A DNA stretch of 64,000 bases from Amoebophrya sp. A120 (Eukaryota; Protista; Dinoflagellata): the NCBI GenBank assembly GCA_905178155.1, contig CAJINV010000007.1, positions 466,020 to 530,019 of the forward strand, written 5' to 3'. A model generated the notes under the pieces. The model saw only the letters and a program-made list of their open reading frames with translations, was not told the origin of the DNA and did no database searches. Position 1 is the stretch's first letter; every line of letters starts with the position of its first letter. The translations under genes and the position numbers were made by a program. Below are positions 3,810 to 63,216 of this stretch, piece by piece.

Positions 3810-6800
3810 ATGAACTTACTGCGCGTGGGCCGCGCGTTGCCCGCGCGGTGCTTGACCGTGCTTCTTTCGCTAATCCAAAGCGTCATGGCGGCGGACTGGT
3901 ATGTGCTCTACGCCGGCGACCTTCCGGTGTACATGTCGTCGGTCTGCCGGCTCAGGTGGCTTCTGATCACAAACGGGGTCAGCAAAGACAAGGTATAGAA
4001 GAAGAACTTCTGAATCATTGCTGGTACTATCTGTCATGCAAAACTCGCAAGAAGCACCTGCCTTGTGATGCGCGGCAAATGTAGTTGTGCAACTACACAG
4101 AGCAACATCGGAAAAAACAGATCATCACTTTCGGAAACAAAATAAAAAACTACCCGACTTTCGACGGCCTTCCCGCACCGGATGCAGCCTGCGAGCCAGA
4201 TTTCACCGTAAAGGATGGGGTGTCGGAGAGTTTTTTCTTCAACGCTTTGAATCAAACGTATGATGGTGGGGTATCGGCCCCGAAGGTTTATGCAATGCAA
4301 AAGCATCGTACTAGTATGAATTGCATGACAATTTTTTTCTGGAAGAAAAATGAAATTTGTCATGCAGATTCAGTTAATAAAGCAGATCTGTAATGCTAGA
4401 CTCGCATTTATACGAGTGCGATACTTTTGCAATGTATAAGGTTCTAGCGACGACAAATAGCGACAACGTTTTCATGTATCTGGCAGGGGACACCGGATAC
4501 GACACAATAAGGCTATGCAATGCAAAAGCATCGTACTAGTGTAGATTGCATTACGAATTAGCCCAGCATTACAAATTGAATTTGTGACGCTGATTCACCT
4601 TGAGAAATAGAGTTGTATTGCATAAACGCAACTGCTACAAGTACGACACTTTTGCACAGGATAAAGGCTCGACGGGAGCAAAAACGTCATGCACGGGTAC
4701 GTGACTTTTTTATTGCGAGAGTTTATTGTCATGCTGGAGGTTTTCGTTTTGGTTTTCCACATGAGTTTCTGTTTTGCAGGAAAGTGCAAGAATACAAGCT
4801 GGTGCATGATTCTTCTTATGTTACCCAGTGGTCAAGTAGAAATAGAAAACAAAAACAACCAAAGGTACGACCTTTTTCAGACGCTGATGGACTCCGGCAC
4901 CAAATTTCGGCAAATGCGCATCTTTCTAGACGGCACGCACTTCGGGGACACCTTCATGAAGTCCGCCATCAGCAGTGCCACCACCTGGAACAGCAATGTC
5001 GCAAAGTCAATAAGGATCACAGCCTCCGTATTCAAGAAAAAAACTGTGTTAGTGTAACTTTCCTTGGCTGACAGCATCACAAATTTGCTCTGCATGACAG
5101 CGAAAACCTGTCATGCGTCGCTTGTAAGGGAAAACACACATGACAAGAGGACTGCATGGCTGTCTGGCATGACAGGCGCAACTCTGTTGCATGTTCTGCA
5201 TTACAAAGTTACACTTACACAGTTTTTTTCTTGCATACTCCGGCACCGGGAGCGCGGACGCGACGGGAGCACAGGCCTGTTTTTGCGCGCCACAGACTAG
5301 TGTCAGGGACGCAGTGGAGCGGTTCAGGAATTTGCACCACCTGGCAGAGAGTCGTATTTGATATTTTTTTTCAGGTGTTTCTTCTTGTCATGCAGAATGC
5401 GGCACGAGAGGGGATGTTTTTGATGCAAAAATGCATAATACACTATCAGATGACACCGACCCGCACTACTGTCTGTCCACCCGCTTTGGGCTCACTTTCA
5501 CGTCCACAAACACCGGACCCATATTGAGAGGAAAAATCTCCCCTCCCCATATCAAAATGGAAATTTGTGATGCTGATTTGTGGTCACAAATCATCTTTGT
5601 CTTGCCTATAGGGCAATAGGAGCCAACATGTGGCGCATTCCAAAGCCAATCTGTCATGCGCTTTCGGCTACTGCGAACCTGTTTTCCATGCATAATTGCT
5701 AGCCTTCTGCATACCCAAACAGGCTCAGAAATTGCCGCCAAGCACTTTCTGCAAGACAAACCTGATTTGTGTACTCAAATCCAGCATCAGAAACTTCGTT
5801 TTGATATGGGGTGGGGGGATATTTCCTCACAATAACCCACCTTCGAAAACCACTTCGCCGCCGTGTATGCATTGCAAATATGTCTGGGTCTGGAAGATTG
5901 AAGGAGTTTGTCATGCAAATTTTACAGGACCATGTTGTCGGTGATGCATGCTCTGGCATTGCAGGTTCCGCGAAGGCTTTCGGCTTTGGCTTTCTCATGC
6001 CGATTCTGCATGAGAAATGGGTCATCTCCGGGAAGCAAAAATCTGAGCACCTTTATTTGCTGCTCATGCAATACAGAATTTTCTCTGCTCGCAAGTTAGC
6101 ATGACAAATTCCATTCTTTGCAGACTGCCAGACATATTTGCAATGCATACCGTGAAAAACTCCACAACGTCTGGGGAGTACATCGCGGCCTCAAGTTATC
6201 CAAGAAAAAAACTATGTGAGTGTAAATCTGTGATGTAGAAAAAGCAAAACTGTTGCACTTGTCATGCTGGGTCTGCGTCATAGGCTATTTTCATACGTGT
6301 TTTCACTGATACTAGCTGCGCATGACAGGTTATTTTCCCTGTAATGCAAAACGAATTTGTGATGCTGCTCTTCCGTACAAAATTACACTTACACAGTTTC
6401 TTTCCTGGATACAAGTTCGGAGATGGAATACGGCATTTTCCCGGAAAACACGAACGGGGACTACTTTACCTACTGCACGAACAGCACAGCCTATCGCAGA
6501 GGAGAAAAACAGTGTTAGTGTAGGTCTGTGATGCAGAAAATGCAACACAGTATACACTTGTCATGCCACACGACGACCACGAAGTGGTCCTTTCATATGT
6601 GTTTCCACGACGTACCAGCCACGCATAACAGGTTTTCTCTGCTCTCATGCAAAGCAAATTTGTGATGCTGTCACCCCAAGAATTTTATACTAACAGCTTT
6701 TTTTTCCTGGACACAGCCACGTCCACCGGCGCGGCGGATTGCAACAACATGTACACGGCGTTTCCCTTCACCAACGCGGATAGCATTTATGCATTGCAAA

Positions 6801-8506
6801 TATCCCTGGATGTTTGGAAAGGTGCAAACTTGTGATGCTCTCTGTCAGTTACAGAAAAATCTGTCATGCATGTTGAGCAGCGAAAGCTGTCCATGTGGGG
6901 TAAGCATTTTTGCAAAGCTGTTGCAACAAATTCTGTGATGCTACGGCCCGCCTTCCAAACCGTCTCGGCCATGCAAAAGATGCACGACAAACGTCGGCAC
7001 TCTTCCAGAGGACCCAGATATATTTGCAGCACTTGATAGCATTTACACTTTCCCCAATTACGCCTCCGGGTGCACGAAACACAACAATCTCGTCTCCACC
7101 GAGCTCCTATCAAATGCAAAAATGTCTGGGTCTGGAAACTTGTGATGCTAAAATGTGGATAATAGAAACAGTTCCGAATGCAACCCAGCATGACAACTTT
7201 CCAGAACGCTTTCGCATCGGCAATCCGCATGAGAAGCTGCGACTTTGCATGTACAAAAGAGGCCGCGACTTTTGTTGGTTATGCAATACAGATTTCCTAG
7301 GTATGGAAAGCTAGCATTACAAGCTCCAACCTTCCAGGCCGAGACATATTTGCAATGCATAGCTCCTTGGCAGCTACTACTTTGACAAAGCATTAAGGAG
7401 AAACGACAACGGGGCTTTGAAAGGGGAACTGGGCCTGCGCGTGGACGCAAAAGCGAAGCTGGACAGCTTCATCACCAGCCACCAGTGCATATGCATTGCA
7501 AATGTGTCTGGGTCCTCTGGATTTGTAATGCAAAATTTGAAAGACAGCGAGGATTTGTGATGCATGAACACGATTGGGCAGTTTTTTTGTCATGCTGTGA
7601 AACTGATTTTGTCATGCGAAACACGGTAGAACTCGCAATACCAAGCGAAAAACTCGTGATGCGTAGACGCCGTAGAAGACACCGCTCTGCCATGCATGAC
7701 TCAGCAACAGAAATTCGTTGCGTCTCTCGAGACCCAGACATATTTGCATTTGATAGTGCACGCAAGTCGGCTGTCTCGACACGACCGTTTCCCTCACGAC
7801 GGCCGCAGAAAACGCGTGCTTCAAGGACTTGTTCGCAATAGTCCAGTCGGGGACGGGGGCGCCAGGTACATAAGTAAGTACTTAAGTAACTCTGGTGCGC
7901 CAGATGAAGAAAGGATTTGAAGATTTGTATATGCATGAAAGAACACGACCGTACAAGAAACGCTTTCTCAACATGCTTGCTGACATTCTGAATAGTTACA
8001 ACATGACCATAAAAATCCACCGATCAGGTTACTCCGCCTACACGCTGAAAACGTGGACGCTTCCGTTGGCCAACATGTGCAAGCAGCATAGCGCCGCAAC
8101 ACTAAAAACGGATTTGACGGCTCTACTCACGTCCAGCGGAGGCAACGAGGCGGCGAAGGCGACGAATAACGCAGACGTGAGTTTCATTCTAGCCATCGTG
8201 GGCTTTGCGGTGTCGGGGGCGTTGTATCTGTTCTTCATGTTTTTCGACACCAGAACGATGGAGGACACGGAGGAAATGCAGGTAAGGGTTTTTAGTTGAG
8301 GTTTGTCATGCGAACAACCTATGCATCAAAATCAAATACAACCAAAAATCGTCATCCACGGTTCTCCGGCATGAGCGTGAGTAAGTATCTGACCACTTTG
8401 AAAACGAAAATCATCCCAGGCCATCAAAGACAAGGAGCAGTCTCGGGCGGCGGGGCGAAAATTGCTGCAAGAGCACGACCGGGCGCACGGGGCCTCGCCG
8501 TTGTAG
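3810..8506 (+). CDS. Multi-exon type I membrane/secreted protein of unknown function (signal peptide, Cys/Ser/Thr-rich ectodomain, C-terminal TM); 9 introners plus about 6 conventional introns
   Basis: Hydrophobic N-terminus (CLTVLLSLIQSVMA). Frame stays open when elements are removed (DPHYCLSTRFG...TFENHFAAV KNSTTSGEYIAASS SEMEYGIFP...). TM VSFILAIVGFAVSGALYLFFMFF. GT-AG introns at 3993-4084, 4697-4779, 4831-4864, 7866-8027, 8282-8419; one junction near 5300-5449 is unresolved. Confidence 0.8.
4289..4438. mobile_element. Introner, family B (150 bp)
   Basis: TIR tatgcaatgcaaaagcatcgtact; TSD aggtt; GT-AG register 4286-4440. Confidence 0.92.
4514..4663. mobile_element. Introner, family B (150 bp)
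   Basis: Same left TIR as the 4289 element; TSD aaggc; GC-AG register 4512-4666. Confidence 0.9.
5029..5237. mobile_element. Introner, family C
   Basis: TIR tattcaagaaaaaaactgtgttagtgtaac; TSD ctccg; no AG acceptor in any register. Confidence 0.92.
5522..5834. mobile_element. Introner, family D
   Basis: TIR tattgagaggaaaaatctcccctccccatatc; TSD accca. Confidence 0.92.
5866..6149. mobile_element. Introner, family E
   Basis: TIR tatgcattgcaaatatgtctgg; TSD ccgtg. Confidence 0.92.
6197..6411. mobile_element. Introner, family C (opposite orientation to 5029)
   Basis: TIR tatccaagaaaaaaactatgtgagtgtaa; TSD caagt. Confidence 0.92.
6492..6713. mobile_element. Introner, family C (degenerate)
   Basis: Imperfect TIR; TSD cagcc; frame restored on removal. 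Confidence 0.85.
6788..7038. mobile_element. Introner, family E-related
   Basis: Imperfect TIR (tatgcattgcaaatatccctgg); TSD gcatt. Confidence 0.85.
7108..7361. mobile_element. Introner, family E
   Basis: TIR tatcaaatgcaaaaatgtctgggtctggaa; TSD gctcc. Confidence 0.92.
7490..7755. mobile_element. Introner, family E
   Basis: TIR tatgcattgcaaatgtgtctgggtc; TSD gtgca. Confidence 0.92.
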
Positions 8507-10820: not shown

Positions 10821-13800
10821 ATGCGTGACCCCTTCGGCCAGGAGCGGTCGATCTGTTTGAAATGCCAGAAGCACGACCGGGAGTGTCTGGAGTTTTTGCC
10901 CAGCGACATGGACACCGACTGCCTGGACAACGGGGATTTCGATTGGGAAGGGGAAATGAAGGACTTGGACGAGCGAAAAGTCCTGCCCTGCATTCTCGAG
11001 TCCATCACCGCCTACCGACGGAGAACCTTCGACGAAAGCAACATCGTCTGCAAGGCGACAAATTCCAGTTCCTTGCTGCAGAATCTCGTTGGCGGCGGGA
11101 GTAGTGGGTCTACTTCTTCGCCATCTTCACCAAGCAATAATCCCTGCATTGCCACCACGAGCAGTGGTTCTTCCCCGATGAATAAATCGGGTGTACAAAA
11201 ATCATCCGCCAGTACCCTGGTGCAGAAAACGTTCCCACCGACCTTAGCAGCCAGCGCAGCAGCAAACAGACAAGGATCTACGTCGACTTCGAATGCGGCA
11301 AATAACAAATTCACCTCCTACTCGCGGATTTGCCACTGCGGGTGCGATTGCGAAGACCACTTGCTGGAAGTGGTTTCGAAACAGGAGAAAATCGTGTTGA
11401 ACCTGATCCGGCCCCATTTTCAGATGCTGAAACTCAGCTACTCGGTGATGCAGTCGGTTACTGACACGGTGCACTTGGACATTCCCCGAACGGAGTTCAC
11501 CTACGGGGAGATCTACGATGTGGCCTTCCTGCGGTTTCTGAACGAATTGTGGGACGAGTATTACGGGGGAGATAATTTTCTTTCGGCTGCAGGTGCCGCG
11601 GTATCATCCCCTGCAAGCCCAGCCTCGCCGAAATCAGCAGGCCCAGGAAGTCCTGCTTTTTCTTCGCCCAAAAATAATACCGGCGCAGCAGCAGGTTCTT
11701 CGCCCAATGTCCCGCACACGCGACCCAGCAAAACCACTGCCGGGGCCGCGCTGGCGGGGAACGGCTCACCGACGAATTCGAAAACTACGAATCTGCTGAA
11801 GAACAACACACAGACTTCTAGCAATCCCGGAACAACATCACCAAGTAGCAACAGGCAAGGAATATTAAACAGTACGAACGGCGCCACCTGTTCGCCGAAG
11901 CCCCTCTCTCCCTTCCACGACCAGTCGCCGGATGTGTCGAAAAGAAGACCGTTTCAGGGAAAATTCCTGGACCTCGGCTGCGGCACGGGGAAGGCGGTTT
12001 TTCTCGCAACTTGGTCGATATGACAGTGCACACCCCCCCCTCCCCCTCATTTGTCATGCAAAATACCCAGTCCACCCTTTGACTCCTAGCGCTGTTTGCG
12101 TGACAAGTTCTGGTAGCCCAAATAGCATTATACTCCCTTGCAAATTTGTCATGCAAAACCGGCACTCCTGCTGATGCTTGTATTGCCGTTCACGCTATAC
12201 AAATGAGGGGGAGGGGGAGTTGTGCACTGTTATAGCCGAAGTGGCAGTTTGAGAAAGCGGAGGGAGTGGAATTACTCCCCGGCCTGCACAAGCTTGCGTG
12301 CTATCTGAAAGACAGCATTTATATCACACAGCAAAAAGTAAAAGCTGGCAGGGCACATTTGTAATGCAAAAAGAAATACTCAAAATCTGCGCTGCACATC
12401 CGAAACAGCATGCTATGGGGCCACCCATGACAAATTTTTCTGTGTATTTATTTTTGCATTACAAATCTGCCCTGCGAGCTTTTTTCTCTGGGATAGTTTA
12501 CAAGTCGTGTGACGCCCTGTCCCCGAAAACGCGGTCGGTGGTATTCTAAGTAAAAACATCCCCACCCCAGAGTTGTCATGCAAACCTGCATGGCAAAAAA
12601 GTTTCTCATGCGGAGCCCCATGCGAAGCATTTTCTCGTCGTGTGTTGGAATTTGTGGTGCTTTAATCAGCATGAGATGCTAGGTCTGTGATGCTGCTATA
12701 CTAGCTAAACAGCATTACACTACGAGGACAAAACTGTCATGCGACACAACCCAAGCTAGTTCAATTTGTCTAGCTGATTTTCCAACTACTTGACTACGGG
12801 TTGGGGACGTCTTTCCTCGGGATACGTGGCGAAAATTCCCCAAACCGACGTAGAATTCTTTCTCGGGGACGTGGCGAAGTGGCATCTGCAGCAGGCGGGG
12901 AAAGAAGAAGCAGAAGAAGGAGAACAAGACGGCGCAACAAGTCGTGCAAATGAAAACAATGATCTGAAGCTCGTGTACATCGCGTCAACGGTTTTTGGCG
13001 AGGAACTGATGGCGAAGATACGGTTCGATGTACTGCCGAAGGTCTGGTATGCAAGTGCAAAAGCATGGACAACGAAGTTGCTTGCCCATATTTAATATTT
13101 GGTGGAATTACCACCAAGTGTGTAGACAAGAGAGAAGCTTGTCGGCGAGTATCTGATGTGTAGTCTGGTACAACGGCCTGCTCGTGGTTCATTCTTCGAT
13201 ACAGAGCGGAAGAATCAGTGATGCGAAACTACGTACTGCGGTATTTTGAAACAGTCACATGCATAATTTCCTGCTCGCTTCAATCATTTCTCCCTCGTGG
13301 GCGACACACAGACTCCAAGGAAGTACAACTTCGCAGCCTTTGCAACCGTTCCATAAATGCAGCAGGGACACGATCATTGTGACGCTGAAGAACAAATTGC
13401 CGGATATAGAAATTTATCAACTGTAAAAATGTCTGGGTCTGGAAGAATGCAAGTTTGTCATGCTTGTCTGGCATGACTCGGGAATCTGTGTTGCATAGGC
13501 ACGAAAAGGCGCTTTTACCTGTCATGCAAAAACGCAGTTTGCCATGCAAGATACGTAAGACATGGGAGCCAAAAAATTTGTCATGCATAGCTGCGTATTG
13601 CAGTCCGTCTACCATTCACTTTTAGCATCACAAGTTTCCAGACCCAGACATTTTTACATTTGATAAAATTTTGCAAGAAACAAAACTCCTCGTCTCCTGG
13701 GGCTATAGCCCTTGCTACGTCTGTCGCCTGCCGGTATCAAAAGAAAAAATCCCCCCTCCCCATATCAAAACGGAAATCTGTGATGCAGATTTGTTGTCAC

Positions 13801-14079: not shown

Positions 14080-14302
14080 GGAAGAAGCTTTTGATCACGG
14101 CGAATATATAATGCGCATCACTCAGTGCTACTGATAGCACGCAGTTTTTTCCTGCTGTTGTACTGTGCATTGTACTAAAAGGACGGCTCCTGCGTAAGAG
14201 TTCTTGGGAAATAAGAGGAGTATTAGCGAGAAGTTATCGCAAGGAAAAATCCCCCCTCCCCATATTGAAGAGGTAGGTTTTCGAAAATTTGTGTTGCTGA
14301 TT

Positions 14303-15656: not shown

Positions 15657-18600
15657 ATGTCTCCCCCCTGCACACCGAAGACTCGGTGGAGTGGGAGCCG
15701 ACGTCGCGTGTCGTGCAGTACTTCTCACGCTCGTCTTTTACAACTCCTGTCACCGCCCGCGCTAGCGTTCTTTCACCTCCTGACTTCGTCAACACGACCT
15801 TTGGTACTACAAGAATTCGGACCAGTTGTAATAAACGGCTTGGAGTTGTTGACCACGGGGCACAAAAAGCAGAAGGCGCGGCGTGTGACGATGAAAGGCG
15901 GAAACGAGGACTCGTGGTCTTCGGGAAGAAGTATTAAAACTGAGCCGGGTTGGAGTGGTCCTCGTCCGGCTGCACGTGGAAGCAGTGAAGGCAGCAATAA
16001 ACGGGCGGCGTACTACCGGAGCGCGCTCTTCGAACTCTTCGCGGCCAAGAAACAACGGAAATCGTTGAAAATCGGGAAAGAAAATGAGAACCTCGAGAAG
16101 TTACACCACAAAGAAGGAGCGCCAGAGAGCTGCGGCGAGAAGAACCCGAAACGAGTGCGGGGAATTTGTTTGAAAGATGCCATTATGCATTGCAAATACG
16201 TTGCCTGGATTGTGCTTTCGAAGGTTGCAAATTGGCATGCAAAATCGCGATCACCAAAAAATCTCCGTGTTGCATGAACGCCACAGGCTAATTCCATTTT
16301 TTAGTAGGGAAACGGCAGACCACGACTTCTAATGCGGGATGAACATAGGTACGAGGAAGGTCTCTCAAAAACAGTGATGCTTGTTCTGTGTGCATTATCA
16401 AGACTATTTGCGTCGACGTGGTCTGCGTCTGCGACATGCATGTTGACAAGTCTTGCATTCTTCCAGGCATGATCCAGGGATATTTGCATTTGATAGCCGT
16501 CAACGACCCAACTGCATTTGGTGCAACACCGGCTTCCGAGAAGGAGAAAAATGCATTCATATCGCGCGGAAAAATGCCCCCTTCCCATATTGAAAAGTTA
16601 TGTTTCCAAAAATTTGCGTTGCTGATTTGTGGCCACAAATCAAATTTGCCTTGCAAATAGAGAAGGGCAGAGGCGTCCGTCCCATTATGGTAGCGATTTG
16701 TCATGCTTTTGGGCGGCCTAGAGGGCGGCAGCCTGCAAAGCTAAACAACTAAGGATACATACGCTGAGGATCTGGCCGCAGTGCCTTACTGCAAGACGTC
16801 ATGGCGTAAGTATTTGCGTACGCAGTAAATCCAGTACCAGAAACTTCGTTTTGCCATGGGGACTAGGGGGGATCATGTTTCCTATCAAATGTAAAAATGT
16901 CTGGGTCTGGAAGCGTGCATGTTTGTCATGCTTGTCTGGCATGACTCTCGAATCTGTCATGCACGTTACCCAAGAGCGCCATTTTTCTGTCATGCAGGAA
17001 CGCAGCTTGTCATGCAGAATAGGCAACACCTAGAAGCTCAGAAACTTGTCATGCTGAGCGAGCACTTGTGGCCTGTTCATGATACGCCACCCAGCATCAC
17101 AAGTTTCCAGACCCAGACATTTTTGCATTTGGTATTTCCTTTTGATAGTTGATTGCCCGTCACCTCACGAGCAGCGGAACATCTTATTACAATGAAAAAT
17201 GCCCCCACCCCCGAACTCGAAAGCATTTGCATTGCAAATCTTTCCAAATGAAACATTCGCCCTCTTGCGTGTATCAGCATCACAGATTTCCGATCGTGAA
17301 TAGCAAAAATTTGTATTGCAAAAGATCCCAGCAAGAGCGGTGCTTGTCATGCAAGCGATGCGAAACACGACTAGAATCTGCATCAGAAAGATTCGTACTC
17401 CTTTCATGCATGACAAAAAGCTTTCATTTGGAAACTTCGCATCACAAATTCTTGCAATTTCAGGGGTGGGGGGCATTTTTCACTGTGATACATCTTGGGA
17501 GGACCCTTTGTGCGTGGGGAAACAGACCAACTTGCTGGGAAGACACGTTGGGCACCATATCCTGAGCAAAAACGTTCCCACCCCATAGTCGAGATGGGAA
17601 GTCTGCTACACAAATCGCCCAGCTTTGGCTGTTGCGCATGACAGATTCGGCCCCCCCGTGTAATACTCCTGTTCAGCTTGTTCAGCAGCATCACAGACCT
17701 AGCACATTGTACTTATCGGAGCACGATGGCAAATTCCGACACACGACTGGAAAATGCTTCTCGTGGGGATCTGCATGAGGAACATTTCCAGCGTGCAGAT
17801 TTGCATTGCAACTATGGGGTGGGGATGTTTTTACTCAGGATACACCAACCGGATTCCCTCTGCGTCTTGTCGGGGTGGCGAGAGCACGCCCCTCGTATCA
17901 AATGCAAATATGTCTGGGTCGGGAAGAGTTTAAACTTGTCACGCAGGTTTTCCATGACTCGTGAGGTCTGGAATGCGGGACCTAGCATGGCAGAGTCTGT
18001 GAGGTCTCTGCCATGCCTATCCTGCAGGAGAAACTCCCTCCAAACTTGGTCGAAAGTGGACAGCTTTTGGCACTCATGCAACACAGAATTCTGCATGATT
18101 CAGATTTAGCATGACAAGTTGCAATCTTCCAGACCCAGACACTTTTGCAATCCATACCTCCGGGTTATGTGCAACCCTTAAAACCTCTGGGGGAACCGAC
18201 GGGGGACAGCCCGCCGCAAGANCCCAAGAGCTCCGCTTTTCTGTGATGCAGAAGCGCAGTTTGTCATGCAGAATAGGCAACACCTAGGAGCTCAGAAACT
18301 TGTCATGCTGAGCCAGCCTTTGTAGCCTCATCATGAGACGCCACCCAGCATCACAAGCTTCCAGACCCAGACACTTTTGCAATCCATACCTCCGGGTTAT
18401 GTGCAACCCTTAAAACCTCTGGGGGAACCGACGGGGGACAGCCCGCCGCAAGAGTTTCGCTTCCGCCACGAAGACGAGGTATCTAGTGCAAACATGTGGT
18501 CTGCGCCTGGAAGATGAATGCGCGACTTGTCATGCTCCGCGGTAGGATGACTCTCAAGCCTGTCATGCACGTCACCCAATAGCCTCGCTTTTCTGTCATG

Positions 18601-19773
18601 CAAAAACGCAGTTTCTCATGCAGAATAGACAACACGACCTAGCACCTCAGAAACTTGCCATGCTGGAGCGTGAGTTGTGGCGTCGTGAAGGTTTTTCGCC
18701 AAACAGCGTCACAAGTTTCCAGACCCAGACACTTTTGCAAGGTATACGAGGTTGGGGACGTCGACAAGAGTGCCCCGGTGGACCTCACCTGCAAGCTGTA
18801 TTCCTGGAGCTACCACTGGAACTACGTGAGGAAGGACGACGACGAGAAGGACGAGAACCAGAACGGATGGGTCCCCAGCGGCGAGCGGTGCCGGGGCTAC
18901 ACGCTCAAGCTGAGAAACGAAGGGTTCGCAAACACGGTTTTTCTGCGGCGGCACTTGTATACTGCGGGGTGGACGTGGCGTTTTCTGAAGACCGACCTCG
19001 GATTCCGGGAAACCGACCGAGACGCCAAGTTTCAGCAAGAGTGCCGCTCGTTTGCCTATAACACTGGGGACCCCGTGAATGATGACGGTGAGGAGGCATA
19101 CTTCGACGAATATGATGTCGACAAGGGGCCCAAAATGCTATGCATTGCAAAAGCGTCTGGGTCTCTGGAAAGAACTTGTGGTGCTAGTTTGCGAATGGTG
19201 GGCAGAGGACGACACTGCAAAAATACGCAGTCACGCATGACAAGTTTTTGAATTTTTATGTGTTTCGCTTTCAGCTGCGTTCTTTTTGCATGATAAGTAG
19301 ACAAGAGGACACTTCTTTCCTGCTCAGGCAATATCACAGGTTTAAGAGTCATGTTAGACATTAAGCATGACAAGCTTGTTTCGTTCTAGTTCCAGAACAC
19401 CAGACGTATTTGCATTTGATGCTTGTTCTTTTCCGGGGGCAAATGGGACGTGCTGGAGGTGGAGTGGAGACAGGCAAAGACATACCAAGTGCAAAAGTGT
19501 CTGGGTCTGGATGATTCTGAGACTTGTCATGCACGGTTTGCGTGAGCCATGACGTCTGTGATGCATGCACTAGCATCACAGATTTTTTGAGGGATGCTTG
19601 ATGCCTATTCCGCATGACAAATGCCCTCGCCGTGTAGCAAAAATTCGACTCATTTTGCTGCTCATGCAACACAAATTTTTTTAGACATCCAAATGCAGCA
19701 TCACAAGTTGCATTCTTCCAGACCCAGACATGTTTACATGTGATAAGACAGTGATCGGGCAGATATCAGGATG
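15657..19773 (+). CDS. Hypothetical, probably secreted, multi-exon protein; 3' end uncertain
   Basis: Frame stays open across removal of elements 16184, 16560, 17185, 17558, 17896 and 18480 (…CLKDAINDPTAFG…IARHLTSSGTSWEDPLCVG…EVGDVDKSAPVDLTCKLYSWSYHW…); assembly gap at 18222. Confidence 0.65.
16184..16495. mobile_element. Introner, family E-related
   Basis: Imperfect TIR; TSD gccat/gccgt. Confidence 0.85.
16560..17147. mobile_element. Introner, family D, containing a nested family E element
   Basis: Left TIR tatcgcgcggaaaaatgcccccttcccat; right TIR split by the nested element; TSD attca/gttga. Confidence 0.8.
16883..17134. mobile_element. Nested introner, family E
   Basis: TIR tatcaaatgtaaaaatgtctgggtctggaa; TSD tttcc. 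Confidence 0.92.
17185..17490. mobile_element. Introner, family G
   Basis: TIR tattacaatgaaaaatgcccccacccc; TSD catct. Confidence 0.92.
17558..17842. mobile_element. Introner, family F
   Basis: TIR tatcctgagcaaaaacgttcccaccccatag; TSD cacca. Confidence 0.93.
17896..18156. mobile_element. Introner, family E
   Basis: TIR; TSD cctcg/cctcc. Confidence 0.88.
18480..18746. mobile_element. Introner, family E
   Basis: Degenerate left TIR; TSD cgagg. Confidence 0.88.
19139..19420. mobile_element. Introner, family E (right end degenerate)
   Basis: tatgcattgcaaaagcgtctggg ... ccagacgtatttgcatttgat; TSD unclear. Confidence 0.7.
19483..19745. mobile_element. Introner, family E
   Basis: TIR taccaagtgcaaaagtgtctgggtctgga; TSD agaca. 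Confidence 0.9.
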
Positions 19774-20208: not shown

Positions 20209-20423
20209 TATCCAGGAAAAAAACTGTGTAAGTGTAAGTTTCTTGGAGGAATAGCATCACAAGTTTGCTCTGCATGACACAGAAAATGAAAACCTGTCAT
20301 GCGTAGCTAGGACGTGAAAACACGCACGGAAATTGCCTCTGATGCTTGTCCAGCATGACAAGTGTAACAGTTTTGCATTTTCTGCAACACAAACTTACAC
20401 TTACACAGTTTTTTTCTTGGATA
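20209..20423. mobile_element. Introner/MITE, family C, host gene not identified
   Basis: TIR tatccaggaaaaaaactgtgtaagtgtaag; TSD ggaag. Confidence 0.93.
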
Positions 20424-39747: not shown

Positions 39748-42700
39748 TATGCCAGAACTGGTCCTGTCAAAAAGGGTGAATTCACCGGGCAATGATTTTA
39801 GCTCGTCCGGCAGCACTCCAACCACGATCCGAACCGGGGGCCGACCGTACCCCTTCCGCAGCCGTGGCTACCCCAGCACGACAGTGAGAACTTTTCCAAG
39901 AACGAAATGCAAGCTTGTGTTTTGCGCGACAGCGAAATTTCTGACGCAAAACTTTCTCTACTGGGGAAGTGACAATGCAGTGGGAACGGCAGGTCTTGCA
40001 GCAACGACGAGTCCTCTGGTGAAATTGTTCGCTAGGAAGCGAAAAACTACACGGAGGCTCAAGCATGGAACTTCTACAGTGGTGGAGAAGGAAACTGATC
40101 CGGTGCTGCTCTCTGTCCCGGGAGGGCCGCGTATGACTAGGAAGCGAAGTATTAAGCTGTCGTTTGTGGAAGCGCAAGCAAATGCAAATGCAAAAGAGAC
40201 CATGAGGAGCGAAGTGGTGGAAACCACCAGGACCGCCACGTCGTCGGGTCAAGAAAACCAAAAGGCCGTCGGGCCGCGTGACACCAGAAGGAGATCAACT
40301 ATGAAATGCAAAAATGTCTGGGTCTGGAAGATTGCTGCATTTGTGATGCATGTCTGACATGACTCAAGAATCTGTGATGCATGGGCACCGAACGGTCTTC
40401 GTACCTGTCATGCAAAAACGCAGCTTGCCATGCGGAACACGCAACACATAGGAGCTCAAAAATTTGTCATGCGTGGCACCGTATTGCAGTGGAACTCTCA
40501 CTCACTTTTAGCATCACAAGTTTCCAGACCCAGACATATTTGCAGTGCATATCAACAGCCCCAGTTGTAGCGTTGTTAGAAGGAGGGACAACGAGGTAGC
40601 AAATGCAAATATTATGTCTGGTGGTCTGGAAGAATTCATCATGTTAGTTTTGGACATTCATATTAGGCAAGCACGCAGGGCAGGACAAGAGCCGCAGAGC
40701 AGGACAAGAGCCGCAGAGCAGGCTTCTCCATGCCAGCGTGCATGAGAACAAATGCCCTCTAGTACTGCGGAAGACAAGAAGCGCGCGCCTCTTGCTGACT
40801 ATCCAGCAGAGGTGCAACTAGTTGCCTACTCCAGGAGACTCGGGGGCATCACAAGGAAGTTGGCAAGATGTTTCTAAGTACACCCAGACGTATTTTTTGC
40901 AATGCATACGAGGTCAGAGCTAATGAATAAAGTAAAAATAACCACGAAAACCGCCACATTCACGTATGCGACCAATTGCAGAGTGGGTACCGTGAGTATC
41001 ACCAGAAAGAACTGCGAACGCCACCCACAAATAAGAAGTTTAGAACTCCAGAAAATAATATATGGCTGTTACGTTGCACTTGCAGTTGTACTTCCTTGCA
41101 TCATTTGTTTCCACCGACATCAAGTGACTTTTTGTACTCATGCGGCAGGACGATGATTATACTCTACTAGGCAGGTTCATTTTACAACGGCAAGCTTTAT
41201 TGGCACGGCTAGGCTGTGAGCCGAGCAACAGCTGCAACAGCACAGGGCAAAGTTTGAGGTATTTCTAGCATAACGCTCTCGAAGATGAAAATACTGTTTC
41301 TGCAGCCCCCGTATATGAAAACAAGAACAAGCGCGAAAGATTGTCTTTTACACTACCACGGGAAAGTGGGTGGGGCGATTTTCCATCTTGAGAAGGGAAG
41401 CCCTGCACACGCTCGGAAACATTGGGGGCTGCTGGTTTGGAGGCTGCTACAACGTGGGCCCATGGGATATGGCGTTCTCAACTCTTTACATTCTCAGCTG
41501 TTGCGTGAATTTGTCATGCAAAAACAGCAATAGGGAAAGGGGAAAGCTTGCAAGTCTTGCATCACAAATTTGGCACGGATTTAGATGCTGTTTAGCCCTT
41601 CGATAATTTGTCATGCGAAGCAGCTTGATCGCCTCGCGGCTCATGGTCATTTTGCATCACAAATTCATGTAACAGTTGAGAATGTAACATTTGAGAACGC
41701 CATATGGGCCGAGTGGAGCCATGTGGACACGGACAATCATGTGTGGTTCGTACTACAGTGAAAAATGCTCCCGTGCATGAAAGTAGTATGAAAGTAGTAT
41801 GAATCTTTCTGATGCAGAGTCTACTAGGCGTACATGGCATCGCTTGCATGACAAACGCCGCTCTCGCTGGGATCTTTTGCAATGCAAACTTTTGCTATTC
41901 ACGATTGGAAATCTGTGATGCTGATAGATGCAAGAGGGCGAATGTTTCATGTAAGGTTTGCAATACAAATACTCACATGTCCGGAAGTGGGGGCATTTTT
42001 CATTGTAATAGTTCGACCGCACAGAGTGCAACGGACAGGACAACGCTGTGGTAGAGCTGACGTCCCCGCACACCTTTCAAAAGCGCAGAAGGAAGTGCGC
42101 CTTCAAGCACTGCATAGGGGAATATGCAAGACATTGTAACGGGTCCAGTGCGTGCAAGGACGGCTCGGGGAGCGCAATTGAGGAGGGACGGAGCTGGATC
42201 TGCACACTCCCGAACTGTGTGAACATCGGCGCGGACGGGGTGCCAGAGCCACAGGAGAAGCCCGTCGACATGACCTCTACGGCGGCTCCCGACACGTCCT
42301 CTGTGATAGATCAGCTCTTTAGCAGCAGCACGACCACGACGACAACAGCGCCGCCTAATCAGGTGGAGCAAGTAGAGCAGTCTGGGGACGACAGTGTCCT
42401 TCCGACAGGCGACCGCTATCAAATGTAGAAATGTCTGGGTCTGGAAGAGTCATGCTGTTTTTGCACGACACAGAAGGTCTGGCATGGATACTCTAGCATC
42501 ACAGGTTTCGAGAAGCTTCCGTCATGCCGAATCTGCATGACAAATCCCCCATTCTGGTGACAGAAAGTGGGCAGCTTTTGCTAACTATGCATGAGAGATC
42601 TTTCTGTGTTCTGAAATGCGCATCACAAGTTTGTATTCTTCCAGACCCAGACATTTTTGCAATCCATAACCGCGAAGCGATAGCAACAGTAACGGACGGG

Positions 42701-43492
42701 GCCGCGAATCAAGAACCCGCTGTGCCGGGCGTAAGCGCCGCGAATGCAGCCACCCTGGCGGCTGACCCGCTCGCGGGGGGCGATGGGCCTTGCTCGACCG
42801 CCAGCCTCGGGCTGCTCATTGCCGGCGGCGTGCTTGTCTTGCTGCTGTGCGGTGTGGCAGGGAGATGCTGTCGCCAGGAGTACTGCTATGCAGACGACGA
42901 CTTTTTCTTCGAAGAAGCAGAGCCGTTTGCAGAAGACGGAGGCGCCTTGGGGGCGGCGTTCTACGACGACGGCGCAGGTTATGGATGTGTCAGAGTTGAA
43001 AGCGACAAAGTTGAAATGATTTGTCATGCATAGAATGGATGCCAGTTGGAACCCAGTTTTCAAGTGGCGCATGACAAATTTTGGTGGTCTCTAAGTCTAG
43101 TTTGTCATGCTGTTTAGGCAATAAAGAAGAGTGATTTTCTCATGCTACTTTAGCAGCTCGAGCTGTAACCACAAACAGGCTTACAATCGGCCTCCCTTGC
43201 CTGCTCTGCAACACACGTGCCTCGGGTCATGCATTTTATGCATTACAAATTCTTTCAACTTTGACGATTTCAAACCTGGCGCTTCCATACAGGTGGCTAT
43301 GATTTTTACGAAGAAGAATGGTACGGAAATAAAGGGAAGAGCAAAGGTGGCTACGATTCTTACTACGGAACAAGCAGCTATGCGCCACCGCGCGGCCCGA
43401 GCAAGGGTATGGGGTGGAGTACTAAGGGCGGCGGCGGAGGGAAAGGGAGCAAATGGGGAGGAGGGTACGGAAAGGACAGTTGGATATACTGA
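39748..43492 (+). CDS. Cys-rich type I membrane protein, family member 2 (Cys-rich domain, Thr/Ala stalk, TM, Gly/Tyr/Lys-rich tail)
   Basis: Exons joined over elements 40300, 40597, 41468, 41751, 42417 and 42980: GCWFGGCYNV, KCAFKHC, RSWICTLPNCV, TM LGLLIAGGVLVLLLCGVAG, tail GGYDFYEEEWYGNKGKSKGG…WIY*; junction near 41000-41400 unresolved. Confidence 0.7.
40300..40551. mobile_element. Introner, family E (similar interior to 13415)
   Basis: TIR; TSD tcaac. Confidence 0.92.
40597..40908. mobile_element. Introner, family E (degenerate, internal 21-bp duplication)
   Basis: Imperfect TIR; TSD cgagg. Confidence 0.8.
41468..41704. mobile_element. Introner, family I
   Basis: TIR tatggcgttctcaa…tacattctca.ctgtt; TSD tggga/tgggc. 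Confidence 0.88.
41751..42010. mobile_element. Introner, family G (reverse orientation to 17185)
   Basis: TIR tactacagtgaaaaatgc; TSD gttcg. Confidence 0.9.
42417..42668. mobile_element. Introner, family E
   Basis: TIR; TSD accgc. Confidence 0.92.
42980..43289. mobile_element. Introner, family H
   Basis: Long imperfect TIR tatggatgtgtcagagttgaaagcgacaaagttgaaa; TSD caggt. Confidence 0.9.
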
Positions 43493-44333: not shown

Positions 44334-44639
44334 TATGGAACTGTCAGGATCGAAATTGACAAAATCGAAAAATTTGTGATGCATGAAATGCACGACGCGA
44401 AATACGTGTGTTGCATAGCAGGCAAGTGAGGCCGATTGTAAGCCTGTTTGGGGTAATAGCTCGAGCTGCTAAAGCAGCATGAGAGAATCAGTCTTCTCGG
44501 CCTAAACAGCATTACAAACTGGATTTAGGCACCGCCAGAATTTGTGATGCGCCACTTAGAAACTGGGTTCGAACTGGAATCCATTTTATGCATGGCAAAT
44601 CATTTCGATTTTGTCAATTTCGATTCTGACACTCCCATA
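44334..44639. mobile_element. Introner/MITE, family H, in 5' UTR or intergenic position
   Basis: TIR tatggaactgtcaggatcgaaattgacaaaatcgaaa; TSD ggtga; 60 bp upstream of ATG 44699. Confidence 0.92.
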
Positions 44640-44698: not shown

Positions 44699-47600
44699 AT
44701 GAGAAGTAAAAGCTCTACGTCTACCACCGTGTGGCTCCTGTCGCAACTGGTTATTTGGTGGCTCAGTATTTTTACCAGTTGCGATTTTTATTTGGAGGAG
44801 TTGTTCGGCTTAGGACCTATTTTTCCAACCCCTTATAATTTGAAGTTGAACTTAGATTTTTCCGAAAATAACCATCGCAAAAATCCTGAACGTCTTCACA
44901 GCAAAAATTTCGTTGCAGCCTACACTCTGAAATTGACCAAGGCATCAACATCAACCACCGGCGGTGACCGCGACGGTACTAAAAATCCAGGAGTGCAGCA
45001 TGCCGACGGTCGTACCGAACCACTCGAACGTCGAGCGACGCCGAGTCAAGACCTTGAGGACCAAGTCCCCGATTTCCAAGGGCAGCATTTCTTTCAACAG
45101 GACGATGGGAAAGTGAGTCGGAGAAGTTATGATCTTCCCGAAGTAGATGTAGACATGGAGCCTCGTCGTGGTCCACCTGAAGTAGTAGGATTTCTTGGCG
45201 GTCGTGAAGAAGATGTTGACCACCTCGTCGCTGCGCCAGCTGCGGGCAAGGATAGCACGGCCACGGCATCTTCGCTCCTGAAACAAGAAGCAAGTGGAGT
45301 TGTTGCTGGCACGAGGAGAACTAGAACTACAAGCGACACCAGAAAGAAAGACACTTTATTGTTGGAGAAGCAAAGCGCGTCGACGGGGTGCGGCGACAAG
45401 GATCATGAAGAAGTAGACCAGGACGAGGAGCCGGTGGGTGAACATCAACTGTGGAACGATAAAGATCGAGATCCTAACAAGGCTGAGGAGCTGATGCAAA
45501 ATCAAAACGTGGACGAGGATAAAGCTCCAGCAGCTCTGTTGGAAGCGGGAGGTGGAACAACTGCGAGAAGATCGGAAGTTGTAGAGAGCGAAGTAAAAAC
45601 CACGAAAACGACCACGTTCACTTACGCGTACGAATGTGAACCAGATACACACGACTGGAACGGCGTTAGCGGAACGCAAAAAGACAAACTTGGGGAAGAG
45701 CCTGGTTGCTGGGCTGGCGGATGCTATCACGTGCGCAACGAGTGGAAAGAATGGACGAACGTTCCACCAAATGGGGAATGGTTGCCTATCACATGGGAAA
45801 TAAACACAGTTTCACTAGAGAGGCTTCAGTGCCTGCAGACTTTAGTTTCGTATGTGGGATGATAAGACACGACTGGCATTTGGTTCATTTCTGGTGTGGG
45901 TGTGGCTCCAGGTTCAGTATGTTGCATGAAAGGCAACGCAGAATCAATTTTAGACAGCTGCGAGCACCGCACCTCCAGCAAGGTCAACATGTCGAGCCAT
46001 GAGATCCTGGTCCCTATGTACTTAGAGCGCGCTGGTCCCACCTATGTCGTGAGAGCGTGTTCTTCAAAAAGAAACAAAGAGCAGTGGTCCTCGAACAAAG
46101 AGGTGAAGGTTCTTCGCGATCAGCGGAACAAACAGGTCGAAGGTAAATCCAACGCTTTGATGTTGATGGCAGCGGGCTTTGCTTGGCCTGGGGAGAGCTG
46201 TGTTTATTTTTTCAGGTTGATGGTACCGGACCGAACGGTTTGCAACACAGACCCGAGCACTTCCAAAACTTACACCTCTGCGGCGGGGTTTCAGCGGCAG
46301 GAAAGGACGTGCTGGTTCAAACATTGCAAAGAGGATGTTAGGGCAAAGCACTGCTTCAATGATCACACGTGCCATAAGGATGGAGACGAAAAGGTGATAA
46401 AGCAACGGCGCACCTGGACCTGCAAGATTCCGGATTGCGTTACCCGGTGGAAGATCGAGCTTGCATTACGTACAAGTCGGATGAGAAGTACCCGAGTGTG
46501 TTTTTGTGCACGACGAATATATAATACTATGGTGTACTAGCTGCGCCAAGCTTCCCAAGAAAGAATTGTGCCGCTGTATTTTGAGTGCATGCAATTATCA
46601 AGAACGTGATTGACAAGTAGCCTCTCCGAGGGGTCGTGATCGAGTATAGACTTTTGCTTTGTACGTAATTCAAGAAGATTTTGACTGCATGCGCGTCAAC
46701 ATCAACGCAGACGGGGTTCCGGAGGCGGAGGAAAAGCCCTCTGACATGACTTCCGCGGCTATCAAATGCAAATACATCATCTGGGCCTGGAGGTGGAATG
46801 CGAGTTTTAGTTTTTGCCATGCTGTTCTTGCATGACATACAGGGTCTTGTGTGCACCCCCCCTAGCAAGAACAAGAAGACATGTTTGAAATGGCTTTCGC
46901 AATGCCTAATCCGCATGACAAATCGCCTCCTTCGATGACACGCAGTGGGCAAATTTTGCTGTCCATGCATGACTGACTTCTGTGTCATCTCAGATGCGTG
47001 GCATAACAAGTTTGTACTTTTCCAGGCCCCGAGGACATATTTGCAATGCACAGTGGCGCCAGAGGAGCAATCCGATTTGGATGACATGTTGAACACGGAG
47101 AACCCCTCGGAAAGTACCACACCCAACCCGTCTGAGGCGCCGGAAGATGGTGCGGGTAGTGGTGCAGGCGCAGCTGTCGTCTCTAGTACCGACGCCGGCG
47201 CCGGTGCCACGGCCGCCGCGGATGCAGCCGACCCTGCCGCCAATGCGAGCAATGCGGGGTTCTATCAAATGTAAAAATGTCTGGGTCTGGAAGTGTCATG
47301 CTGTTTTTGCATGACACAGAAGGTCTGGCATCGAAGCTCTAGCGTCGCAGGTTTCGAGAAGCTTCCGCAATGCCGAATCCGCATGACAAGTCCCTCACTT
47401 TTCTGACAGAAAGCTGGCAGCTTTTGCTACGTATGCATGACAGACTTTTCTGTGTTGTGCAATACGCATTACAAGTCGCATTCTTCCAGACCCAGACATT
47501 TTTACATTTGATAGGTTCACTTCCGAAGCAATCGCGGGAATGATCGGGGGCGCGGTGCTGGTGGTCGTGCTTTGTGGCGTCGTTGGGGCGTATTGCCGAA

Positions 47601-57830: not shown

Positions 57831-60800
57831 ATGATGGGTTCTTGGAACATCAGAAGGACCCAGCATAGAAGTGCCTTCTCCACCTTCGGGTCTTGCGCGC
57901 ACAGTCTCTACTCGACACGACCACGAGGATCTTTTCTCCTGTCACTTTTCCTCCTCCTCGCGCATCATCTTCAAGATCATAGTGCAGCAAACGCATTCCA
58001 GCTCGTGCAGCAGAAACGGACAGGAGATCTGCACAGGACGTTGTCGCACCGGAGCAAGAACCAGCATGGCCAGAAGATTTTTGCAAGTAGTTCTCGCACA
58101 ACTTCTGTGGTTTCCGCGGATCAACAGGGAGAGGACGGCACGACGAGGACCGGGGGTATGTTGATTATTCTGAGTAAAAACGTCCCCACCCCATAGTCAA
58201 GTTGGGAATCTAGCAACACAAATCTCCAAGTTTTGGGAGCTGTGCATGACAAGTTTCCCTCTGCAACGGAGTGCTGATTGGCAAGAGAAGCCGCATGAGA
58301 AAGCAACTTTCCCATCCTGTTTACAGCATCACAGATTCCACAACACGACTGGAAATGCCTCTCATGGAGCTGCGCATTACAAATGTTCCTGTCGTTGCAC
58401 ATTTGCATGACAACTCTGGCGTGGGGACGTTTTTACACAGGATATTGATGCAGGTTTCATCGTCCTCCAAAACCGGAACCGAATATGGATTGCAAATATC
58501 CCTGGATGTCTGGAAGAGTCGAACTTGTAATGCTTTCCGCGGATTCTAAAAATATCTGTGGTGCATGAGCAGCAAGAGGAGTCAGTTTTTGGCACGCGGA
58601 GAGGGCATTTCTCATGCGTAATTGGCATCAAGCAGCTCTCAAAAACTTTAACTTTGTGATGGTAGCACCAGCATCACAGAACTCACGGGTCATGCAAAAC
58701 GTGCATGACAAGCCCCGACTCTTCCAGACATCCAGGGATTGTTGCAGTTGATACCGAAAGCGGAACCGCAAAAATTGAGTCGGAGGACAACTCGGTGATC
58801 ACCGACAACTTTGAACTTGTGGGGAATGGTATCCAAGAAAAAAACTGTGTAAGTGTAACTTTGTGTTGCAGAAAATGCAAAACTGTTACACTCGTCATGC
58901 TGGACATGCATCAGAGGCTATTTTCGTACGTGTTTTCAAGTGCTCTCGGGCTGGAGGAGGGAGTAGCACGCAGCAGTCCGCAAAAGGGCACACTGCCAAC
59001 ATCATCATCATCATCAAGTACTAGCTACGCATAACAGGTTTTCTGCGTCATGCAGCATGCAGAGCAAACTTGTGATGCTATTCTTCCAAGAGACTTACAC
59101 TTACACAGTTTTTTTCTTGCATAAATGGGCACTGCGGGAACGATGATCACCCCCTGTGGGCGAATGCGCAGTTTGTGGCGGATGTCAACGAAAGGCAGTG
59201 TGCGGAGTCTTGTCTTAATAACAAATGGGTGGAAAGCCTCGACAATGAAAGCGCTTGGAACTCGAAGCACTTTCCCAACGGCGATGGTACTTGGAAAACG
59301 TGGAGCGCAGACAAACCCATCAAGGGAGAGTGCACGGGTTACAATTATTCAAATAACTGTCTGATTTACAATGACGAATCAGGAGCAGAAAAAAAGTTTG
59401 CAGTAACCCAGGTCTGGAAAAAGGAGGAGGAAAGGGAATCCTGGCTTTCCGATGCGTTGTATGGCAAGGGAGATGATGCAGAAAGAAACACGTTGAAAGA
59501 CCTCCTCGACAGTTGGAGTACGCATCCCTGTAAGAAAAAGAAGCCTTGCGTCGGTTTCGGGTTCCATGACGCCAGTTCGTGCAATGGCGCGCACGAGGAA
59601 GACAAATGCGTGTGGGGTGTGAAGTACAAGTTAGAAAGTGCGGAAAGATGGGTGGAGGAAGGTGGTGAGGAGATCTGTCTCAGCTGCAGCATAAGCATTG
59701 CAAAAGCATTGCACTGGTAGAAATTGCATTTATACAAATTTGCTCAGCATAGCAAATGGAATTTCTAAATGCTGATTTGGCTCCGGAAGGAAATTTGTGA
59801 TGCATAACTGCGATTACTGCGAGTGCGATACTTTTGCACAGGATACAGCACAAAAGACGGAAAGACCGAGGCCGAGTGCGAGGGTTTTTCGGGCGGCAGT
59901 TGCGTGTATGAAGCTGGCGAAGTCAATCCAGCCGAGGGTCTGTGTGTGCCGAAGCCAACGACAACCACGACCACAACCACGACGACAACCACGACATTGG
60001 CGCAAGCTCCGTCACCCAGCGTATCGTAAGGAAAAATCCCCCCTCCCCATATCGAAAAGGCACACCTCAGAAAATTTGCCATGCTGATTTGCGACCACAG
60101 ATCTGATTTGAGTTTTTTTGTTTTTAAGGCTAGGAAAAGACATGCAACTGGGGACAGCACGCTATTGCGCATCTAGCACCCGTCAAGTCCAGGAGAACGA
60201 GCCAAGGACGCTCCCACCAATGCAGCAACGGCCGTCCCTGGGTGGTTGAGTGTCGTCCAGACCGACGGCGGTAGATTCTTCTGGAGGCGGAGGCTAGATT
60301 TTCAATAGTGGAGGAAAGATGTCAAATTATGTATGAAGTGCTCACGTATTCTATACCCTAATGCGACCCAAAAAGGAGAATCTCTCCTCCGTCAGCATGC
60401 CAATAGCATTTGGGTGCACTACTGTGTGGAAGGCTCTTCTACTTTTTCCAAGCGGCTGGATTTCTCGTAGAATTGCCGTCGCACAAGTAGCGCAAGTGAC
60501 ATCTTTTAGGGGGGTGCCTACCCTTTTGCATGTTCGATTTTGATTCGTTATTTCTTGATTTTCAGAATGATGATGATAATTTTTTCTGGTTAGCCCGTAG
60601 CCATTTTGGCTCAAGCGCTAGCCCGCGTAGCCCGCATCCTCGCAGGGGCAGCTGTTTTTTTTTCCGCCTTGCCAGCGGATTTTGTCGCGGGGAAGAATGC
60701 AGTCTGGGTTCAGCCGTCCCTCCCTCCCGGGGTTCATCTACACAAACACTAGTCCTGCGTCCTTACTCTAGTCCTTTTTCCGTAGATCATGTCTTACGTT

Positions 60801-63121: not shown

Positions 63122-63216
<95 letters not shown>

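Follow-up and report, generated by a model that had tools for sequence, protein, structure and literature searches.

How can one and the same insertion be removed from a transcript whichever way round it lies? The question is raised by a single + strand gene in the window (the whole 64-kb stretch of DNA analysed here), which an earlier note had described as interrupted by two elements of one introner family in opposite orientations. The window contains ~55 elements of this type, which start with TA(T), end with (A)TA, and have a 5-bp direct repeat on both sides. They are short (~150–440 nt, mean 252 nt), non-coding, and without a transposase gene inside. The 3.26-kb element at 60022..63282 has no internal ORF >122 aa, Rfam gave no match in the window and none in this element, the window stretches scanned against Pfam (5, then 4) had no match, and a homologue search with window:1399-1839 found nothing. 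The features of the host gene are:

3810..8506, + strand: host coding sequence interrupted by 10 introners and five introns of the GT-AG type; 546 aa when read from its first ATG
3993-4120, 4697-4864, 5354-5449, 7866-8027, 8282-8419: GT-AG introns of this coding sequence
5029..5237, - strand: family A introner, reversed relative to 6197 and 6492; duplication 5024-5028 / 5238-5242, inferred intron 5028-5241
6197..6411, + strand: family A introner; duplication 6192-6196 / 6412-6416, inferred intron 6196-6415
6492..6713, + strand: family A introner, the third copy in this gene; its 3' end is ACA, not ATA
5866..6149, - strand: family B introner, same way round as 7108-7361; removal from spliced length
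6788..7038, + strand: family B introner, reversed relative to 5866 and 7108; removal from spliced length
7108..7361, - strand: family B introner; removal from spliced length

The element at 5029-5237 matches the reverse complement of 6197-6411 from end to end (blastn, 74.8% over 218 columns, E 6e-34), and the same-strand match is confined to the inverted ends. After 35 nt had been trimmed off both ends, the interiors had scores of 110 in reverse and 21 on the same strand, against a median of 28 for all pairs of 53 elements. The two copies lie on opposite strands as the note had claimed, but the match, at ~75%, is not that of exact reverse complements. The note overlooked the copy at 6492-6713 and the presence of family B both ways round in the same gene. 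Two further pairs that it had listed as reversed in + strand genes, 17185/41751 and 42980/63678, are indeed reversed (blastn, 85% over 226 nt and 77% over 315 nt, respectively). All hosts are on the + strand, with open frames of 567, 561, 589, and 458 codons after removal of the elements. The copies of families A, C, D, and E that bear on orientation elsewhere in the window are:

20209..20423, - strand: family A copy, oriented as 5029, in another + strand gene; removal from X1 record 6 length
58830..59123, + strand: family A copy, oriented as 6197; direct joint 58824>59124 in X1-X4
17185..17490, - strand: family C introner; removal inferred solely from the 561-codon frame
41751..42010, + strand: family C introner, reversed relative to 17185; direct joint 41745>42011
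42980..43289, + strand: family D introner; direct joint 42974>43290
44334..44639, - strand: family D introner, reversed relative to 42980; direct joint 44327>44639
63678..63986, - strand: family D introner, reversed relative to 42980; removal inferred solely from the 458-codon frame
12542..12824, - strand: family E introner, oriented as 47609-47890; direct joint 12537>12826
58166..58444, + strand: family E introner, reversed relative to 12542; direct joint 58160>58445

Removal was followed in X1-X4, assembled contigs from two samples of one study, which are putative RNA and give neither strand nor splicing efficiency. These contigs skip GT-AG introns, and positions 9672-10338 are uncovered in X1 and X4 and covered in X5. 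Record 10 of X4 (2103 nt) leaves 1116 nt to fill 3991 to 8024. Subtracting the 10 elements, along with one repeat copy apiece, and the five GT-AG introns from a + strand model leaves 2103 nt and a 567-codon open frame, in agreement with the earlier statement that 5029 and 6197 interrupt the same coding sequence. Only one of the 32768 subsets of the 15 modelled introns reaches this length. The donor at 5354 was picked after the record length was known, so 3 nt of the fit are post hoc (the rejected donor at 5351 gives a model of 2100 nt, 3 too few); despite this choice, the model would be at least 155 nt too long with any one element kept in. Because the length fits full removal alone, 5029 and the reversed 6197 and 6492 are missing from one transcript, as is family B both ways round (5866 and 7108 vs 6788). 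Record 2 of X1 also equals its model (2554 nt). Direct joints that omit the element plus 5 nt are found in each of families A to E; the joints listed (15 of 19) include 40300 and the reverse 49928, and 42417 and the reverse 58484. According to the earlier note, an unspliced orientation would have refuted its reading; transcripts support removal in both orientations for four families (A, B, D, and E), and both orientations are removed from the spliced contigs. A raw RNA run (X7) had 96 mapped reads, all on repeats.

The elements might instead be excised from DNA rather than RNA, like ciliate internal eliminated sequences (IESs) or somatic transposon excision, a reading suggested by their TA-bounded ends with a direct repeat and the loss of exactly one repeat copy. 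We regard this as highly improbable, as DNA-like contigs of X5 (records 14-17) pass from exon into the element for 26-34 nt with no other letters and no break, and the element-free contigs also lack the GT-AG introns; rare excision may nevertheless occur, the X5 joints having been listed in part.

Beyond the window, a pattern scan found at least 147 loci, all those listed coming from one assembly (JACKZZ01) that contains the same families as the window, with copies up to 98% identical to window copies among the matches listed. A profile search with the first four bases masked retrieved 408 elements in 645 kb plus the window, and an exact 5-bp repeat flanks 315 of them, other repeat lengths accounting for 0-10 each. 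Removing 1 mis-bounded window copy (407), 32 elements without strand (375), and 17 with more than two repeat mismatches left 358 copies for analysis of the ends, and the orientation count used 367 copies, 8 outside families of at least four copies being left out. Host strand was called by a codon model trained on the loci, which was right at 90 of 114 window test points, wrong at 1, and made no call at 23; adjacent calls agreed in 235 of 241 cases. The calls require an open frame across the junction and thus favour frame-restoring copies, equally in both orientations.

The count per family and host gene that the earlier note had called for shows near-equal use of both orientations: 10 of 11 families occur both ways, and none departs significantly from 50:50 (lowest p 0.06; 367 copies, mostly from the related assembly). 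The ratios are 88:73, 30:23, 20:15 (the family holding A), 15:14, 17:8, 10:9, 8:6, 7:3, 4:4, 4:4, and 5:0. Grouping by orientation within families gave no inconsistent edge, and same-family neighbours at most 3 kb apart are opposite in 58 of 102 pairs. Independently called flank frames come back into phase when the element and 5 nt are taken out, as seen in 90 of 103 and 86 of 95 called cases (351 copies, of which 26 had short flanks and 127 were uncalled). In the related assembly, the RPB1 gene in locus L068 carries two families, each in both orientations, and alignment to P0001 is restored only by removing the element plus 5 nt (five coding junctions tested); a sixth copy in this gene sits inside another intron. 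None of the 120 RPB1 matches listed is from a named Amoebophrya, and in a midpoint-rooted tree of 27 rows this RPB1 is sister to the core dinoflagellates (support 90/90), a position that is compatible with Amoebophrya but no proof of it.

As a perfect repeat hides the position of the cut, copies with unequal repeats are needed to bracket it. Those discussed individually are:

40997..41393, no strand assigned: worn introner with diverged duplication; joint 40995>41398 with zero shared letters, intron fixed at 40996-41397
13048..13355, no strand assigned: worn introner; joint 13044>13358 with 2 shared letters, cut after duplication position 2-4
16184..16495, + strand (orientation from 2 matches only): family B-like introner; X1 record 4 piece ends at 16182, cut after position 4-5
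19139..19421, - strand: family B introner; a piece of X1 record 6 stops at 19135, with matching length, cut after position 2-4
46441..46691, no strand assigned: worn introner, removed although no end stem is predicted; joint 46436>46693, 1.4 expected arm pairs
60022..63282, no strand assigned: 3.26-kb element whose ends are of family G; in X3, a loose end after 60020 resumes at 63287, cut at or before position 4

At 40997, the transcript changes from the left to the right repeat copy exactly after position 4. The change falls after position 2-4 at 13048 and 19139, at or before position 4 at 41468 and 60022, after position 4-5 at 16184, 3-5 at 45787, and 2-5 at 12019, and after position 1-5 at 12322, 12542, and 46441. 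Position 4 is the sole cut compatible with all 11 informative junctions, and the intron therefore consists of one base, TAT...ATA, and four bases. One of the 11 junctions fixes this register by itself, and 4 of the 11 exclude just position 0 or 1; for 16184 and 19139 the evidence is the end of a piece, and for 60022 a loose end, rather than a listed joint, and a leftmost convention was used. From this overlap, we infer one register for all copies, with the cuts 1 nt before TAT and 4 nt after ATA. The family B junctions, 16184 and 19139, come from copies in opposite orientations, the former weakly assigned. The direct repeats had hidden the true borders of these introns, which the copies with unequal repeats now place in a single register that can serve as an annotation rule for these genes. 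We consider the descriptive picture of element anatomy, removal both ways round, and fitting cuts to be nearly certain.

Strong hairpins and 5-nt direct repeats, both present here, are a known setting for an artefact in which reverse transcriptase switches template across the hairpin, and the skipped forms could in principle arise between the repeats in this way. This explanation is barely credible, as the joints 40995>41398 (0 shared letters), 13044>13358, and 45784>46226 (2 each) keep the register, copies without a stem are skipped too, and reading frames, that of RPB1 included, require removal.

The earlier note had argued that the removal signal must be symmetric, and the signals needed are indeed not in the asymmetric interior, but they are read with direction on the RNA: the cuts are offset by 1 nt on one side and 4 nt on the other, and the 5' TA is conserved, whereas its 3' mirror is not. 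Among the 358 stranded copies, covering both element orientations, one has a changed 5' TA and 15 have a change in the mirror 3' TA (1 vs 14, p 0.001, for the loci alone). The 3' changes fall in 9 family/variant classes and the 5' change in 1; with so few classes, the 15 changes at the 3' end are not all independent. Position 3 has the opposite trend (10 changes at the 5' end vs 3 at the 3' mirror, p 0.09), and positions 4 to 26 have no significant 5'/3' difference in the 358 copies. Of the 9 changes at the last base, 7 are explained by G-U wobble, which does not explain the 6 at the next base. A strand bias in A-to-G mutation should give the opposite direction to that seen at positions 2 and 3. 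In the inferred register, the T and A of the element are intron positions +2 and +3. All six transcript-supported GT-AG introns start with GTA, as do 69 of 79 predicted ones, although the gene finder has a prior for GTA donors and is noisy, recovering 3 of the 6 known introns exactly and placing 5 of the 6 donors correctly.

The standard second step of splicing requires terminal Gs. The introners need no GT or AG, and their target has no letter rule: in the inferred register, 11 of 358 copies are GT-AG, and the unambiguous joint 40995>41398 is GT..GG. G at +1 is not preferred (G at duplication position 5 in 92 of 292, mirror 89), nor is AG at the 3' end (29 of 292), and AGG occupies duplication positions 3-5 in 10 of 292. 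Unbiased orientation and the lack of a target rule together explain how the elements can flood coding sequence cheaply. A drift of the intronic repeat towards G (+1) or AG, hinted at in the window by G in 6 of 8 position-5 mismatches, was not reproduced in the 358 copies, where G accounted for 3 of the 13 mismatches at position 5 and for 3 of the 16 at position 4. GTSATGC was likewise discarded as a general sense-strand splice or branch signal; it occurs in 4 of 6 window GT-AG introns, and the 79 predicted introns have it 11 times in sense and 9 times in antisense.

An ordinary spliceosome could act on the introners if conventional donor, branch, polypyrimidine, and AG signals occurred by chance on both strands. 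T runs near the 3' end in both orientations, supplied by most inverted ends, and a YTNAY-like word in 75-100% of family A copies would suit this reading, and spliceosomal introners that work in either orientation exist (bioRxiv 10.1101/2020.10.14.339549). It is very unlikely nonetheless, given the few GT-AG copies in register, the joint 40995>41398 without AG, and the rarity of the branch-like word in families B and H (YTRAY in 2-9%). We found no branch-like motif common to families or orientations and no enrichment of branch-point words in the last 60 nt, and the host GT-AG introns lack a polypyrimidine tract. The claim that removal cannot rely on a strand-specific branch point or polypyrimidine tract is therefore borne out insofar as no branch motif is shared, but goes too far in that inverted ends of 25-40 nt can carry directional signals both ways, so that orientation alone leaves the spliceosome and a branch point possible. 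Its premise, that spliceosomal introners need a fixed orientation, was wrong. Introners of Polarella glacialis (classes 1, 2, 3, 6, 7, 8, and 10) and Aureococcus anophagefferens are reported to form introns either way (bioRxiv 10.1101/2020.10.14.339549), and as these are spliceosomal, orientation is no argument against the spliceosome.

The reading we favour, to which we give an even chance, is that the cuts are made by a relaxed spliceosome, with the signals in the mirror-image ends. MITE-like elements would have been inserted by an enzyme of the cut-and-paste type that staggers its cuts by 5 nt, and each inverted end would supply N-U-A at +1 to +3 of the intron, where host donors have G-U-A. 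As the ends are alike for 25-40 nt, either orientation presents the same 5' N-UA and 3' AUA-N4. The relaxed spliceosome would read the 5' UA as donor, the paired ends would probably place the 3' cut, and the 3' site, without fixed letters, may be measured from the end stem or the AUA. The lack of preference for G at +1 or for G or AG at the 3' end counts against this reading, as do the missing branch motif across families and the euglenid-like end stem of 37 of 41 removed copies. It is favoured because the conserved bases sit on host donor positions, because Polarella class 12 shares the geometry, with canonical sites (bioRxiv 10.1101/2020.10.14.339549), because the Amoebophrya strain A120 reportedly has nearly all spliceosomal proteins with U1 not found (PMC7789003), and because the spliceosome of Fritillaria deals with such introns (PMC11282704).

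A dedicated activity, either non-spliceosomal or a second spliceosome, could instead recognise the end stem, cut 1 nt before and 4 nt after the element, and join the exons. A stem of at least 17 end-to-end pairs is predicted in 37 of 41 removed copies from inverted arms of ~25-40 nt, and the predicted end stems of the 5029 and 6197 copies have z-scores of -8.7 and -4.5 against shuffles. Such an activity would require no terminal G or AG, its N1-UAU...AUA-N4 layout parallels N3CDG...CH'GN5-6 of Euglena (PMC12501133), and a genome in which U1 was not found (PMC7789003) would accord with it. Four of the 41 removed copies (13048, 18480, 40997, and 46441), however, have <10 predicted end pairs, most changes in the second terminal pair (6, all at the 3' T) break pairing and a single one (at the 5' A) keeps a G-U wobble, and the conserved UA occupies the host's own donor positions +2 and +3. 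These points only weaken the idea, since a protein reading the stem plus UA would fit them too, and the lack of a terminal-G preference and the euglenid-like layout lead us to keep it as a possible, if rather doubtful, explanation. Of the terminal inverted repeat or hairpin signal proposed earlier, the symmetric ends are confirmed, but a pure hairpin fits poorly with the removed copies that lack a predicted stem. End-to-end pairing as a feature of the GT-AG introns was rejected, as it was not above that of cross-pairs (p 0.77, n = 77).

Common to the relaxed spliceosome and a dedicated activity would be a ruler rule, which we put forward tentatively, at somewhat less than an even chance: N-UA...AUA-NNNN insertions, about two thirds of the introns of this alveolate, would be excised at any target and in any orientation without a terminal G or an AG, either by a U1-less spliceosome without a terminal-G requirement or by a second machine convergent with that of euglenids. 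If the rule is true, every exonic insertion of these transposons would be silent. The 5' UA, conserved on that side alone, marks the bases to change by mutagenesis, and lariat versus circle and sequence versus stem are directly testable.

The elements of the window are very likely of the kind published as introner elements of A120. These have an end motif of 8-20 nt, 3-5 nt direct repeats, and non-canonical ends (PMC7789003), and the mean length reported for the non-canonical introns of this strain is 240 nt (PMC7789003). As in A120, the ends begin with TAT, 7 looser bases, and AAA (here in 573 of 716 arms), although families D, J, and K have no A run at this place, and 5-bp repeats, inverted ends, many families (here 11 with at least four copies), and co-oriented genes are also shared (PMC7789003). 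The arms, at ~25-40 nt, are longer than the published motif of 8-20 nt (PMC7789003). The splice sites of A120 introners were described as variable, with the border unresolved, in a genome with a near-complete spliceosome and no U1 found; the same repeats also occur in 15% of its canonical introns (PMC7789003). Removal of the non-canonical introns, >60% of the total in Amoebophrya, is treated as an open question (PMC7789003; PMC11282704).

Elements of this class are thus already known from the literature, as are introners functional in either orientation. In the text of Farhat et al. (PMC7789003), orientation refers to gene blocks and introner orientation relative to the host gene is absent; in the parts of the literature covered, including text of that study, we found no report for Amoebophrya of an orientation ratio, a register, or a one-sided TA. 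PMC13326754 does not mention Amoebophrya, and in the portions of PMC9860276 and PMC12130899 covered, orientation is a search filter or, once, the position of a splice boundary.

Among introners elsewhere, three Polarella classes (6, 8, and 10) are biased towards one orientation, and class 12 works in a single orientation (bioRxiv 10.1101/2020.10.14.339549). In class 12 (5-nt target site duplication, NNAGG), as here, the intron runs from the last base of the left duplication into the right one. Polarella and Aureococcus introners are reported to prefer certain targets because GT/GC/GA and AG must come from the element or the duplication (bioRxiv 10.1101/2020.10.14.339549); in contrast, the elements described here mostly lack a canonical donor and AG, and have no target rule and no significant orientation bias. 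The symmetrical stwintrons of Hypoxylon are likewise repeated introns with inverted ends (45-55 nt) whose symmetry is dispensable for removal, but their canonical U2 signals are confined to the coding strand, and they lack a target duplication (PMC8469720). The non-canonical introns of Fritillaria borealis are MITE-derived and removed by an adapted U2 spliceosome (PMC11282704). They also combine inverted ends, a duplication, and non-canonical ends, with AG-AC and AG-AT preferred and a TAC target (PMC11282704), whereas no terminal pair is preferred here. Finally, the nonconventional introns of euglenids, an unrelated lineage, share non-canonical ends, a set-back inverted-repeat stem (predicted in our case), and direct repeats with the elements described here, and a MITE origin has been proposed for them as it is here (PMC12501133; PMC11282704). 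Their signature differs (N3CDG...CH'GN5-6/R, with the bar before R, vs N1-TAT...ATA-N4; PMC12501133), and they are reported to leave as circles without lariats (PMC11282704).

The word GTSATGC or its reverse is found in the interiors of all 10 end families of introners and is carried by 329 of the 358 copies with an assigned host strand in the window and the loci of the related assembly. Across the same sequences, it reaches 14.9 per kb in element interiors vs. 0.33 per kb in exon flanks, and its position peaks 30–50 nt inside each element end, with the word pointing inward. As a guess, GTSATGC may be a common binding site for a transposase. The GT-AG introns of the host genes (n = 77, mostly predicted; window and loci) are enriched in T towards the 5' end (39%) and in A towards the 3' end (36%), and lack a polypyrimidine tract.

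Introners are also located within one another or within other introns, as in the following features of the window and of L068, a locus of the related assembly:
window 16560-17147, family G copy, outer element of a nested pair
window 16883-17134, family B copy, inner element of that pair
L068 4320-12777, RPB1 gene, whose coding junctions carry five or more introners
L068 11517-11756, introner of this gene, within another intron

The family B copy is inserted in the right inverted end of the family G copy, and taking out both restores a frame of 561 codons. Contigs of X1, a presumed transcript run, branch at 16560, with the outer element retained in one of them, which is consistent with a stepwise or incomplete removal of the nested introners.

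One further element and two open frames in the window are listed below:
60022-63282, 3.26-kb element with family G ends
51154-53268, open frame without introns, 705 codons
53455-56472, open frame without introns, 1006 codons

The element is missing from a contig of X3, a second presumed transcript run. Its interior contains a duplication, imperfect at 74% over 573 nt, a long run of TAC, and a piece of 170 nt that recurs in many loci; no ORF >122 aa was found inside it, and an Rfam search gave no match. Both open frames have low contig depth and no Pfam match. The host proteins encoded at 39.7-43.5 and 44.6-48.1 kb (and 21.7-22.6 kb) look like paralogues when judged by eye, sharing a Cys-rich region, an acidic linker, and a hydrophobic segment, and their genes differ in introner positions.

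The raw RNA run X7 carries the same species label. Because its matches are confined to repeat elements and mostly lie at 90–95% in family B interiors (14527-14613 and 18072-18140), these sequences suggest that X7 derives from a different strain with the same family B. Further repeats in the window are:
18157-18453 and 14235-14351, stretches where an element has been duplicated locally along with exon sequence
38052-38552, G/C-rich tandem unit in four copies, spaced about 107/145 nt

The two duplications, one of which contains an N at 18222, are possibly artefacts of assembly.
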